The translations under genes and the position numbers were made by a program. From the IMG/VR virus record IMGVR_UViG_3300013132_002633, positions 12,497 through 76,496 of that record: a stretch of 64,000 nucleotides of DNA; one strand, given 5' to 3'. The notes beneath the pieces were generated by a model. The model did no database searches and had not been told where the DNA came from. It was given only the letters and a program-made list of their open reading frames with translations. Below, one piece after another: positions 8,066 through 12,113 of the stretch. Positions within the stretch are counted from its first letter, which is position 1. Every line of letters starts with the position of its first letter. Origin of the DNA: a virus.

Positions 8066-8899
8066 ATGGCATTAGATATTAGCAAGCTAAAGAGCCGTTT
8101 GAACTCTCTTTCAAACACAAATCAAAAATCCAACCTTATCTGGAAGCCCAAGCCTGGCAAACAGGTAGTTCGTATTGTTCCTTATAAGTTTGTACCTGAA
8201 AACCCTTTTATTGAACTCAAGTTTCATTATAACTTGAACGGTAAGAGTTATCTATCTCCTGATAGTTTTGGTCGCCCCGATCCTATCGTTGAGTTTAGTA
8301 ACCGTCTAAAAAAGACTGGTGATAAAGAAGACTGGAAGACTGGTCGTAAAATGGAGCCAAAGATGCGAACGTTCGCTCCCGTAATTGTACGTGGAGAAGA
8401 ACATGAAGGAGTAAAGTTTTGGGGTTTTGGTAAACAAGTTTATCAGGAACTATTGTCTATAATCAGTGATCCTGATTTTGGTGATATTACTGACTTAACT
8501 AGTGGGCGTGATATAGTTGTAGAGTTTAAAACGGGTGATGAATCTGGTAAGACATACCCAGAAACAAACATTCGTGTAAAACCAAATGTTAGTGTTGCAG
8601 TTGATCCTAAAAATTCTCAATTGATTGATTCTCTTAAAAACCAAATTAATATTTTGGATTTGTTCCCAGAGTTGACATATGACGAATTGGAGGACGTTAT
8701 GGATAAGTGGTTGAATCCTGAAGTTTCAACAGAAACTACAGACGACACTTCTGTATCAACTTCAACTGATGACGATGATGTGCCGATTACATCAAATGTA
8801 AAACCGGTTGACGTATCTCCATCGGCTAATAAAGCAAAAACCAATGTTCCCGCAAAAGACAATGTTGAACAAGCATTCGATGACTTGTTTAATTCTTAA
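8066..8899 (+). CDS. Single-stranded DNA-binding protein (T4 gp32-like)
   Basis: WKPKPG-VRIVP, FHY, GVKFWGFGK-VY, DITD-SGRD, acidic tail ending AFDDLFNS; adjacent to the recombinase. Confidence 0.85.
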   Translation: MALDISKLKSRLNSLSNTNQKSNLIWKPKPGKQVVRIVPYKFVPENPFIELKFHYNLNGKSYLSPDSFGRPDPIVEFSNRLKKTGDKEDWKTGRKMEPKMRTFAPVIVRGEEHEGVKFWGFGKQVYQELLSIISDPDFGDITDLTSGRDIVVEFKTGDESGKTYPETNIRVKPNVSVAVDPKNSQLIDSLKNQINILDLFPELTYDELEDVMDKWLNPEVSTETTDDTSVSTSTDDDDVPITSNVKPVDVSPSANKAKTNVPAKDNVEQAFDDLFNS

Positions 8900-8909
8900 A
8901 CAATAAAAT

Positions 8910-8943
8910 AAAGCCGGTGGAGTTTTTATACCCCACCGGCTTT
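8910..8943 (+). terminator. Intrinsic terminator-like hairpin after ssb
   Basis: AAAGCCGGTGG / CCACCGGCTTT 11-bp stem. Confidence 0.7.
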
Positions 8944-8958
8944 CTAGTTATATACACT

Positions 8959-9252
8959 ATGGCAAAAAAATCTACAGTTTCAAAAGAATCTACACAACGA
9001 GATGAATTAATTGAGTTGTTGGCAAGTGAGCTTAATAAAGCAAATAAAGAAGGTGGCAAGATTGCATACTTTTTAGATGAACAAGAAAATCCAGCAGAAA
9101 TTAGTGATTGGATTAGCACAGGATCATCTATATTGGATTTAGCAATCAGTAACCGTCCGCACGGTGGTCTTCCAGTTGGCAAGATGGTTGAATTCAACGG
9201 ATTGGAAGGATGCGTAACCGAAGACACTATAATAAAAGTTATTATTGAATAA
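8959..9252 (+). CDS. recA: RecA/UvsX piece 1: 84-aa N-extein plus 13-aa N-intein
   Basis: WISTGSSILDLAIS...GGLPVGKMVEFNGLEG, then CVTEDTIIKVIIE*; likely start ATG 8959 because the track start lies inside the terminator. Confidence 0.9.
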   Translation: MAKKSTVSKESTQRDELIELLASELNKANKEGGKIAYFLDEQENPAEISDWISTGSSILDLAISNRPHGGLPVGKMVEFNGLEGCVTEDTIIKVIIE

Positions 9253-9707
9253 AAATCTCCAATCCAACTATTAAAAGAAAAAAATCTGATGATAGATTTA
9301 GAAAATTTGGAAAAATTAAAAAGAAATTTATGAATAGAATAGTAAAAGAAATAAAAGTTGGTGATGTTTTATCTCTCTTAGCAGAAGGTAAAAATATTAA
9401 AGTATTGACTCGTAACAACGAGTATGTAAACATTACAAATTATGTAGATAAAGGATTATTAGATACATTTAAAGTTACATTAGATAATGGATTTACAATA
9501 AAGGTCTCTAGAGAACATAAATTTTTTACAAATGTTGGTTGGGTAGAACAGAGAAATTTAATTAAAGAAAATCACAAAATCTTTTGTGAAGATGGTGAAT
9601 ATCGTACAATACAAGATATAGAATATATTGGAAAACACAAAATTGTAGATATCACCGTTGATTCAGATGATCATTCGTATTTTGGAAATGGTATGCTTAA
9701 TCATAAT
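9211..9707 (+). mobile_element. Atypically split intein RecA-1 (IntN 9211-9249, 13 aa; IntC 9330-9707, 126 aa) in Walker A
   Basis: Cys1 block A; IntC holds block B VSREHKFF, block F IVDITV..HSYFGNG and terminal HN followed by +1 Thr; splicing restores GLEG|TGKS. Confidence 0.88.
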
Positions 9708-10193
9708 ACAGGAAAATCATTGGTATCTGCACATGTTGTTGCTGATACTCAAAGAAAAGGTGGAGTTGCAGTTGTCATTGATACTGAAAACGCAGCTGCT
9801 CCTGAGTTCTGGAAAAGTTTGGGTGTAGATCTATCTAAGTTACTGTATGTTCAATGTGAAACCGTTGAAGATATTTTTGCTCAGATGGAAAAGATGATCG
9901 CAATTGTTCGTAAGAGCAACAAAGATCGCATTCTTACAATCATTGTTGATTCTGTAGCAGCAGCATCAACTAAGGCAGAACTAGAAAGTGATCATGGTAA
10001 AGATGGTTATGCAACTGGTAAGAGTATTATTATCAGCAAGGCGATGCGTAAGATTACTACCATGATTGGTCGTCAAAAGGTTCTTACTGTGTTTACCAAT
10101 CAACTTCGTCAAAATATAAATGCTATGGCATTTGGTGATAAATATTGTGTTGATCCGTATACAACAAAAATAAAAATTAGATATAAAATTTAA
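9330..10193 (+). CDS. recA: RecA/UvsX piece 2: IntC-1, 146-aa middle extein, 15-aa IntN-2
   Basis: TGKS, IDTENA, Walker B IIVDSVAA, FTNQLR, then CVDPYTTKIKIRYKI*. Confidence 0.92.
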   Translation: MNRIVKEIKVGDVLSLLAEGKNIKVLTRNNEYVNITNYVDKGLLDTFKVTLDNGFTIKVSREHKFFTNVGWVEQRNLIKENHKIFCEDGEYRTIQDIEYIGKHKIVDITVDSDDHSYFGNGMLNHNTGKSLVSAHVVADTQRKGGVAVVIDTENAAAPEFWKSLGVDLSKLLYVQCETVEDIFAQMEKMIAIVRKSNKDRILTIIVDSVAAASTKAELESDHGKDGYATGKSIIISKAMRKITTMIGRQKVLTVFTNQLRQNINAMAFGDKYCVDPYTTKIKIRYKI

Positions 10194-10201
10194 TTTTTCC
10201 T

Positions 10202-10245
10202 CCTCCTACTATACACTTATACTTAAATAAGTCCTTAGTAGGAGG
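10202..10245 (+). promoter_or_regulatory. Hairpin sequestering the Shine-Dalgarno of the endonuclease gene
   Basis: CCTCCTACTA (10202-11) pairs with TAGTAGGAGG (10236-45); inner stem ACTTAT/ATAAGT; ATG at 10250. Confidence 0.8.
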
Positions 10246-10249
10246 TAAT

Positions 10250-11287
10250 ATGATTTTACTAGAATATTTAGATATAAATTTAACGTGGAAGAAAAATAAA
10301 CCAATTTTTAAATTTATAATTAAAACGGAAAAAAGAAAAACTAAAGAATTTCCTCTTAAATGTATTGTAAATAACAAAAGAATATCTAAAACAGGCAAAG
10401 AATATTATATACATTATTTGGGAGAAATTGGAGAAGAAGTATATAACGAGAGAAAAAAGTTATATAGCATGTACAGTCTTATACCATTTTATATTAAAAC
10501 GTATAATAAAGATGTTGAGAAATTGAACGAATATCTTAAAATATTGAAAAGTAATAATGTGAACGGCATTAAAAAATTTTATTTGTCCGAAAAGGGAGCT
10601 GAAGCTAGAAAAATACAATCGGAATGGGGAATTAAACATTCAATGGAAATCTCATCTAGAAATAGAAAATTATGGAAAGAAGATGAGTATGTTAACAAAG
10701 TCAAATCAAATCAAGATTATTCTTATGAAAATCATGGGAAGAAAATTTCCGATTTCTATAAAAATCAAAAAAATAAAGATTTCATAAAAAGTGTCATGAA
10801 CTCCCCGAAGAGAATCGAAAAAATATCGTTATCATCTAAAAAAATGTGGGAACATGCAAAATCATTTAATAAAGAGATGTATTATAGAATGATAAATTCG
10901 CAAAAACATAAAAATTTTGAATTAAATGGATATAAACTTAATAATATCGAATATTTGGTAGGTAGTATATTAAACAATTTTTCTATAAATTGGGAATACG
11001 AAAAAATTTTTCAGTTTAAAACAACTTGTTATTTGCCCGATTTTTATGTAAGATCTAAAAATCTAATCATAGAATGTTATGGTGATTATTGGCACGCCAA
11101 TCCTAAATATTTAAACGAAAACGATTTTACACATAAAAATAGATCTGTGAAAGATGTATGGGCATACGACTCTAGAAAAAAAGAAATTTTTGAAAACAAT
11201 GAATTTTCTTACTTATTTTTCTGGGAAAATGATATTCTAAATAACATAGATGGTATAAAAAAAACAATATATGAATACACAAGATAA
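10250..11287 (+). CDS. Free-standing Vsr/DUF559-like homing endonuclease
   Basis: C-terminal YLPDFY..LIIECYGDYWHANP...FWENDI; basic N-terminal region; lies between intein halves. Confidence 0.8.
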   Translation: MILLEYLDINLTWKKNKPIFKFIIKTEKRKTKEFPLKCIVNNKRISKTGKEYYIHYLGEIGEEVYNERKKLYSMYSLIPFYIKTYNKDVEKLNEYLKILKSNNVNGIKKFYLSEKGAEARKIQSEWGIKHSMEISSRNRKLWKEDEYVNKVKSNQDYSYENHGKKISDFYKNQKNKDFIKSVMNSPKRIEKISLSSKKMWEHAKSFNKEMYYRMINSQKHKNFELNGYKLNNIEYLVGSILNNFSINWEYEKIFQFKTTCYLPDFYVRSKNLIIECYGDYWHANPKYLNENDFTHKNRSVKDVWAYDSRKKEIFENNEFSYLFFWENDILNNIDGIKKTIYEYTR

Positions 11288-12113
11288 ATACATAGAAGAA
11301 GAATTAACAATTGCCGAGTTTGCGGAAAGATTTTTAGGAATGAATAATTATTCATCTGAAAACGTTGAAGAAATAGATATATCGGATATGGATATAGAAA
11401 TATATGGTCGAGATTTAAAGTCCTCACAGGATTGCTATAATAAAATTAATAAATTTATAATCAAAACTCCATCGGAATATCATTACAGTGATGGTATACT
11501 GAAAGGCACAGATTTACATCGAATTATTGAAGATGGAGTTGAAATTCACTTGAAAGATCACAACGATTTCAAAAGGGTTAATGAACCAATAAAAGTTGTA
11601 GATTTCGATATTGAAAATACACACAATTATTATGCCAATGGTCGATTAAATCATAATACCGTAAGCGGTGGCAAGGCTTTGGCTTATCACTGTAGTGTTC
11701 GTGTTCGTTTGAACAACACTGGTAAGTTGAAAAAGGCAGAAGAAGTTATTGGCAACGAGTGTAAAGCAGTTGTTATCAAAAACAGAATGGGTCCGCCACA
11801 ACGTCAAGCTAACTTTGAAATCTACTTTGACAGCGGTATTGCTGACTATAGTAGTTGGATCAAAGTATTGAAGGAGAATAACATTATCAAACAAGGTGGT
11901 GCGTATTACTCTTACAGAAAAGAAGACGGTAGTGAATGGAAGTTCCAATCCAAAGACTTTGTATCTACCATGCAATCTGACAAGGTTTTAAAAGAAGAAT
12001 TATATCTTAAGATCTGTGATGCGGTTGTTATGAAATACAAAGATCCTAACAGTCAAATCGTTGAGGATGCTACTGTTGATACTGATGAAGAAACTGCTGG
12101 AAACGACGAATAA
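11271..12113 (+). CDS. recA: RecA/UvsX piece 3: IntC-2 plus 151-aa C-extein
   Basis: GGKALAYHCSVRVRL, VIKNRMGPP, IYFDSGI, GAYYSY. Confidence 0.92.
   Translation: MNTQDKYIEEELTIAEFAERFLGMNNYSSENVEEIDISDMDIEIYGRDLKSSQDCYNKINKFIIKTPSEYHYSDGILKGTDLHRIIEDGVEIHLKDHNDFKRVNEPIKVVDFDIENTHNYYANGRLNHNTVSGGKALAYHCSVRVRLNNTGKLKKAEEVIGNECKAVVIKNRMGPPQRQANFEIYFDSGIADYSSWIKVLKENNIIKQGGAYYSYRKEDGSEWKFQSKDFVSTMQSDKVLKEELYLKICDAVVMKYKDPNSQIVEDATVDTDEETAGNDE

Follow-up and report, generated by a model that had tools for sequence, protein, structure and literature searches.

The UvsX/RecA-like recombinase of an uncultured lake phage, encoded in three ORFs on the plus strand at positions 8959-12113 of the window (the whole stretch of 64,000 nucleotides analyzed here), is very probably interrupted in its Walker A loop by a genuine natural split class-1 intein, hereafter intein 1. 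This intein is broken at the atypical S1 site, the endonuclease gene between its halves appears to have been lost down to 77 nt, and trans-splicing of the two halves is predicted from the sequence. Moreover, we consider it rather likely that the family of UvsX Walker A inteins to which it belongs, with more than 60 natural variants and with near-identical alleles that are contiguous, split with an endonuclease or split without one, has the shortest natural IntN (13 residues) known for efficient trans-splicing. If true, the family would not only serve as a new tool for semisynthesis but also record, as it happens, the birth and perhaps the re-fusion of a split intein at a non-canonical site.

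Gene layout and intein motifs

The recombinase locus comprises the following features, with positions referring to the window.

8959-9210, plus strand: N-extein of the UvsX/RecA-like recombinase, 84 codons, ending in VEFNGLEG, the first half of Walker A; Pfam RecA; collinear with the intein-less homologues P0072 and P0101
9211-9249, plus strand: IntN of intein 1, CVTEDTIIKVIIE in 13 codons, with block A; predicted to form beta1-beta2, and mapping in the AF2 model of the relative L095 to residues 1-13
9250-9252, plus strand: TAA stop ending the IntN of intein 1; unchanged in runs X2 and X3, with TAA, TGA or TAG at the same codon in relatives
9253-9329, plus strand: 77-nt spacer, read as the decayed 3' remnant of a free-standing PD-(D/E)XK homing-endonuclease gene
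9289-9333, plus strand: mini-ORF in the spacer, MIDLENLEKLKRNL followed by a stop, 14 codons; its TGA overlaps the IntC ATG (ATGA)
9330-9707, plus strand: IntC of intein 1, 126 codons; contains blocks B, F and G and closes with GMLNHN
9708-10145, plus strand: middle extein, 146 codons, with Thr+1 first (TGKS), completing Walker A; Pfam RecA, E 2e-26
10146-10193, plus strand: IntN of the second split intein, 15 codons plus stop
10250-11287, plus strand: free-standing gene for a Vsr-like (DUF559) endonuclease between the halves of the second intein; Pfam DUF559 24 bits, cut-off 20.6
11271-11657, plus strand: IntC of the second intein, 129 codons
11658-12113, plus strand: C-extein, 151 codons plus stop, beginning TVSGG; Pfam RecA, E 8e-13; collinear with intein-less homologues

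Pfam RecA was recognized in all three pieces of the gene, the first of which spans 8959-9252 and the second 9330-10193, and none of the pieces carries a frame disruption. When the exteins were joined without both inteins, a protein of 381 aa was obtained that is 89-92% identical to uninterrupted homologues with no gaps, and the sequence across junction 1, VEFNGLEG followed by TGKSLVSA, is the same in the intein-less homologue P0072. Because the joined exteins are collinear with uninterrupted homologues and the junction is identical in P0072, the boundaries of intein 1, the count of 13 residues and the assignment of Thr+1 are exact. This is in accordance with the preliminary description of this DNA, which had placed a 13-residue IntN before the TAA at 9250 and had named Thr as the +1 nucleophile: 13 codons run from the TGC at 9211 to the stop, the same tail is found in 63 clusters of homologues, and the HN that closes the IntC is followed directly by TGKS. 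The spliced product would be recognizable by the predicted tryptic peptide across junction 1, MVEFNGLEGTGK.

Pieces 1 and 2 form two distinct ORFs of the same strand, and a scan of the 77-nt gap that divides them detected neither a promoter nor a terminator. The pieces of the recombinase would have to be joined by a split intein, and splicing is predicted. Upstream of the locus, a 14-bp GC-rich hairpin is located at 8910-8943, between a gp32-like gene (8066-8899) and the recombinase start; it scored as a terminator on the minus strand only.

The residues expected of a splicing intein are present in both halves. The Cys1 codon TGC at 9211-9213 directly follows GLEG, and Cys1 is invariant in the 63 clusters. 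As had been claimed, blocks B, F and G are all contained in the 126-aa IntC of the next ORF, namely block B with S60-R-E-H63, block F with VDITVD..DHSYFGNG and block G with MLNHN; in alignments A1-A3 the residues H63, D107, H115, H125, N126 and Thr+1 are invariant or nearly so. Pfam searches with the first 128 residues of piece 2 recognized PT-HINT (29.0 bits, cut-off 27.7) and Intein_splicing (E 4e-7), and the best match of the IntC among solved structures in a phmmer search against the PDB was the gp41-1 intein (E 1e-8). Of the features that define a class-1 intein, a nucleophile at residue 1, blocks B, F and G, the +1 residue, a collinear host protein and the HINT fold were found, the last of these in a model of the relative L095.

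Conservation and reality of the split

Contigs of runs X2 and X3, which derive from other lake-water samples and other studies, cover positions 9126-9800 and 9152-9512, respectively. Since both contigs cross the stop and the gap with 0 substitutions or indels, stop and gap are real. Furthermore, a search with piece 1 retrieved 63 metagenomic protein clusters (formed at 90% identity, 48-92% identical to piece 1 of the window) that end in a short IntN, of 13 aa in 52 clusters and of 14 aa in 11, so that the stop is codon 14 or 15 in all of them. That the same tail of 13-14 aa closes 63 independent clusters places it beyond chance. Within this tail, the CVTEDT of positions 1-6 is practically invariant, I or V occupies positions 8, 10 and 12, and position 13 is mostly E or D; in the loci compared at the DNA level, synonymous changes are abundant in the IntN codons, and the stop varies between TAA, TGA and TAG while its codon position stays the same. 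Equally frequent are homologues of piece 2 whose first part is the IntC; the second intein is present in some (about 286 aa) and missing from others (about 422 aa). In the set used for the intein tree, 61 of 71 IntC sequences are split forms, of which 12 were confirmed on DNA and 49 were inferred from a called protein beginning at the IntC. No cultured phage with intein 1 was detected by blastn and tblastn against the phage collection, in which only unrelated terminase and polymerase inteins were matched.

The distances between the halves bear on the reading that intein 1 is a cis-splicing intein whose frame is restored by a -1 shift at GAA-TAA, or whose continuity was lost through a missing base in the assembly, so that IntN, an insert of 27 aa and the IntC would form one chain. 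The preliminary description had named such a -1 frameshift as the outcome that would speak against a split intein, and its observation that the frame of piece 2 is open from 9249, just before the stop, was confirmed; the existence of contiguous alleles of intein 1 also fits this reading. However, the region is without a slippery site of the X XXY YYZ type, a -1 slip before GAA meets a TGA at 9246-9248, the RNA of the gap does not form a stable fold (z -0.41), and the independent runs show the identical sequence with no indel. Above all, the gap measures 40, 73, 77, 97, 138, 219, 306, 1119, 1127, 1129, 1137 and 1154 nt in the 12 distinct split loci, the frame relation of the halves differs among these loci, and stops lie between the halves, while relatives with gaps over this range, in the same or in other frames, keep the 13-aa IntN. 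As the gaps vary from 40 to 1154 nt in differing frames, a frameshift is ruled out, and together with the identical independent contigs and the lack of a stable fold this led us to reject the frameshift or assembly-error reading, to which we assign next to no probability.

Selection on the separate halves was estimated by the Nei-Gojobori method. The dN/dS values were 0.03-0.32 for the IntN, 0.05-0.32 for the IntC and 0.02-0.15 for the exteins, which are rough values with dS near saturation, and they indicate clear purifying selection on all three as judged from these codon comparisons. Additionally, a variant of the N-extein was found in run X4 (freshwater, other study) at 8946-9186 with 12 differences in 241 nt, 10 of them at third codon positions; this bias agrees with purifying selection acting on piece 1 in a related population.

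These data also bear on the idea that the locus is a decaying relic, in which invasion by an endonuclease broke the recombinase gene, splicing of the halves has ceased and loss of the gene is under way. In favor of this idea, decay has already reduced the endonuclease gene to a remnant, and a backup recombinase could exist: no second RecA gene was found in the 76.5-kb IMG/VR virus record, but because this record is about 25% complete an intact recombinase may be encoded elsewhere in the genome. Against this, no catalytic residue has been lost: Cys1, His of block B, Asp and His of block F, the HN at the end of the IntC and Thr+1 are all in place. IntN, IntC and exteins each show a dN/dS far below 1, the stop position is kept over the 63 clusters, and the pieces are free of frame disruptions. 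Moreover, a nucleophile, Thr, occupies junction 2 of the intein-bearing allele, in place of the Val of intein-less homologues. Decay of the locus is thus improbable, and a functional split intein remains the preferred reading.

Gap, endonuclease gene and contiguous alleles

In five relatives (L082, L089, L091, L093 and L098) the gap of about 1.1 kb contains one ORF each, of 360-374 aa, which is located in the S1 loop on the same strand as the intein:

L082, 1802-2887, same strand as the intein: gap nuclease ORF
L089, 1413-2495, same strand as the intein: gap nuclease ORF
L091, 1419-2504, same strand as the intein: gap nuclease ORF
L093, 1401-2507, same strand as the intein: gap nuclease ORF
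L098, 1396-2520, same strand as the intein: gap nuclease ORF

The deduced proteins carry a C-P-D...E-I-K motif, show weak Pfam matches to Phage_endo_I, PDDEXK_3 and the TnsA N-terminal domain, and match one PHROG annotated as endonuclease (E 5e-7); on these grounds the ORF is read as a putative free-standing PD-(D/E)XK homing endonuclease. It ends in NLEKLKRNII, and its TGA overlaps the ATG of the IntC (ATGA). Translated in the frame of piece 1, the 77-nt gap of the window can be aligned with the final ~26 codons of the ORFs in the gaps of L082, L089, L091 and L093; the last ~46 nt of the window's gap are ~80% identical to the DNA of L082, and the mini-ORF at 9289-9333 retains the ATGA overlap. 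[quoted passage not shown] The window can therefore be placed as the last stage of this series, because its endonuclease gene is deleted to the IntN stop and the stretch before the IntC start; in the window, intein 1 has no free-standing endonuclease gene between its halves, where the 77-nt 3' remnant is all that is left. The comparison shows that in the relatives the putative PD-(D/E)XK gene in the S1 loop supplies the stop of the IntN and overlaps the start of the IntC with its 3' end, and that in the window it was deleted to 77 nt. The stretch before the IntC start may have been kept for translation of the IntC, with the mini-ORF coupling translation into it; no clear Shine-Dalgarno sequence was found at the IntC start. 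Independently of this, window positions 9302-9336 (35 nt, comprising the 3' remnant of the endonuclease gene and the IntC start) also occur, with 4-5 mismatches, on further contigs of runs X1 and X2, the longest one noted being 20 kb; copies of the endonuclease/IntC junction hence exist in other genomes of the same lakes.

Contiguous inteins of 136-146 aa are present at the same site in L085, L088, L095, L097, L105, P0014, P0025, P0027, P0030 and P0047. In the intein tree these 10 contiguous forms are scattered among the 61 split ones and the well-supported branches require at least 5 changes; the tree was built from 118 columns, leaves 40 of 68 inner branches open and carries only a qualitative statement of intermixing. 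The contiguous L088, the split P0009 and the endonuclease-carrying split L089 share a nearly identical IntC. Two of the contiguous alleles look like re-fused split halves from their sequences, and the change may have run in either direction: L095 (2453-2863; compared with L094) consists of a 13-aa IntN followed directly by the Met-IntC, and L088 (1495-1911) keeps the Met at the start of its IntC and resembles the IntN end of L089 minus one base, so that translation continues across what used to be the stop region and reaches the Met of the IntC in frame.

Thus, one locus displays the contiguous, the endonuclease-fractured and the endonuclease-free split intein, the window representing the last of these with a recognizable remnant. 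The series supports the model of split-intein origin of Dassa et al. (2009; PMC2677866), here at a non-canonical site. Fractured genes described in that work involve the GIY-YIG and Vsr-like endonuclease families and include one endonuclease-less locus, gp41-7 (Dassa, London, Stoddard, Schueler-Furman and Pietrokovski, 2009; PMC2677866). This layout is found exactly in L082, L089, L091, L093 and L098 and also in the second intein of the window with its Vsr-like gene, whereas the gap nuclease in the relatives of intein 1 differs from the published cases in being of the PD-(D/E)XK rather than the GIY-YIG or Vsr-like type.

Predicted fold, splicing route and relation to known split inteins

The fold was analyzed on the natural fusion L095, modeled as one natural chain that is 53% identical to the intein of the window (alignment A3). 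The AF2 model, obtained with a 17-row alignment, reached a pLDDT of 94.1 and a pTM of 0.85. In it, beta2 comprises residues 7-12, the turn residues 13-14 and beta3 residues 15-20, and the IntN of the window ends at residue 13; given these strand positions, the natural break lies in the beta2-beta3 turn. This corresponds to the S1 site, i.e., a break right after beta-strand 2, as reported for VidaL and PolB16 (PMC13014065). The best Foldseek match to the L095 model was VidaL (6vgv; TM 0.88, rmsd 1.7 A, 22% identity), followed by the DnaB, RecA and gp41-1 inteins, and nearly all of the listed matches are solved intein (HINT) structures. VidaL was also found with the family profile (E 5e-8), and single-sequence phmmer against the PDB gave no match to it.

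Class-1 inteins splice through a thioester, a branched intermediate, Asn cyclization and an O-to-N shift. Following this, we propose that the 13-residue IntN docks on the IntC as a beta1-beta2 hairpin and thereby completes the HINT fold, that Cys1 would then form the thioester, and that attack of Thr+1 on this thioester (trans-esterification) would yield the branched intermediate. Cyclization of Asn126 would free the intein, and the O-to-N shift would create the Gly84-Thr peptide bond, by which the Walker A sequence GLEG-TGKS is rebuilt; the second split intein would subsequently add piece 3. Since the break falls within the ATP-binding loop, activity is not likely in a complex that has failed to splice.

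Alternatively, the intein halves might act as a clamp that holds the recombinase pieces together non-covalently, with no peptide bond being formed. Split-intein halves are known to bind each other tightly, and the splicing chemistry is a prediction here, both of which are compatible with such a role. Contrarily, the break is located within Walker A, so that the 139-aa complex of the intein halves would occupy the ATP site, and mere binding does not need strictly conserved nucleophiles and Asn126. We regard a purely non-covalent association as very improbable and retain covalent trans-splicing as the predicted outcome.

With respect to length, the preliminary description had given a range of about 15-37 aa for the IntN of atypically split inteins, had ranked the 13-residue IntN among the shortest natural ones and had proposed comparison with the literature. 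That comparison supports both statements: natural atypically split inteins have an IntN of 15-37 aa, with 16 aa in VidaL, 25 aa in AceL-TerL and 15 aa in PolB16 (PMC13014065, 2026), and PolB16 OarG, whose splicing is slow, was designated "the shortest characterised" with 15 aa (Pasch et al., 2023; PMC10189870). The 13-aa IntN is two residues below this shortest characterized natural IntN, as compared with the lengths given in PMC13014065 and PMC10189870. The gain over 15 residues is a matter of degree and leaves the understanding of inteins unchanged.

VidaL (6vgv/6vgw), as it is presented in PMC13014065 (Neugebauer, 2017; Burton, 2020), shares with intein 1 the natural split after beta-strand 2, cysteine dependence, a very short IntN and an origin in an environmental T4-like phage. 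Unlike intein 1, it has, according to the same account, an IntN of 16 instead of 13 aa and resides at another site of another host protein, and splicing was shown for VidaL, whereas it is predicted here; the sequences are 22% identical. Intein 1 is hence not the same allele as VidaL by host site or sequence family, its site being the UvsX Walker A loop and the match being one of profile and structure only. PolB16 OarG is similar in its natural S1-type split and very short IntN, but it has Ser1, is cysteine-less, is inserted in a PolB polymerase, originates from a sheep-gut metagenome and has an IntN two residues longer (PMC10189870). An IntN shorter than 13 residues, with 11 aa, is cited for the artificial Ssp DnaB S1/M86 intein (Lin et al., 2013, as quoted in PMC11766414 and PMC13014065). 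As far as these secondary accounts go, artificial S1 inteins are split at the position seen here and resemble intein 1 in the length of the IntN, but were engineered and evolved in the laboratory, in contrast to the natural, selected split described here; they show that trans-splicing can be supported by an IntN of 11-13 aa.

A short IntN can be synthesized as a peptide, which allows labeled or modified N-terminal segments to be placed on recombinant proteins. A natural IntN of 13 aa with dozens of variants and a Cys1/Thr+1 pair constitutes a cheap and promising candidate set for this purpose.

The second intein of the window, at 10146-11657, is also atypically split: its IntN has 15 aa (CVDPYTTKIKIRYKI), and the Vsr-like/DUF559 gene overlaps the start of its IntC. 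In relatives, the corresponding tails are 15-16 aa or longer.
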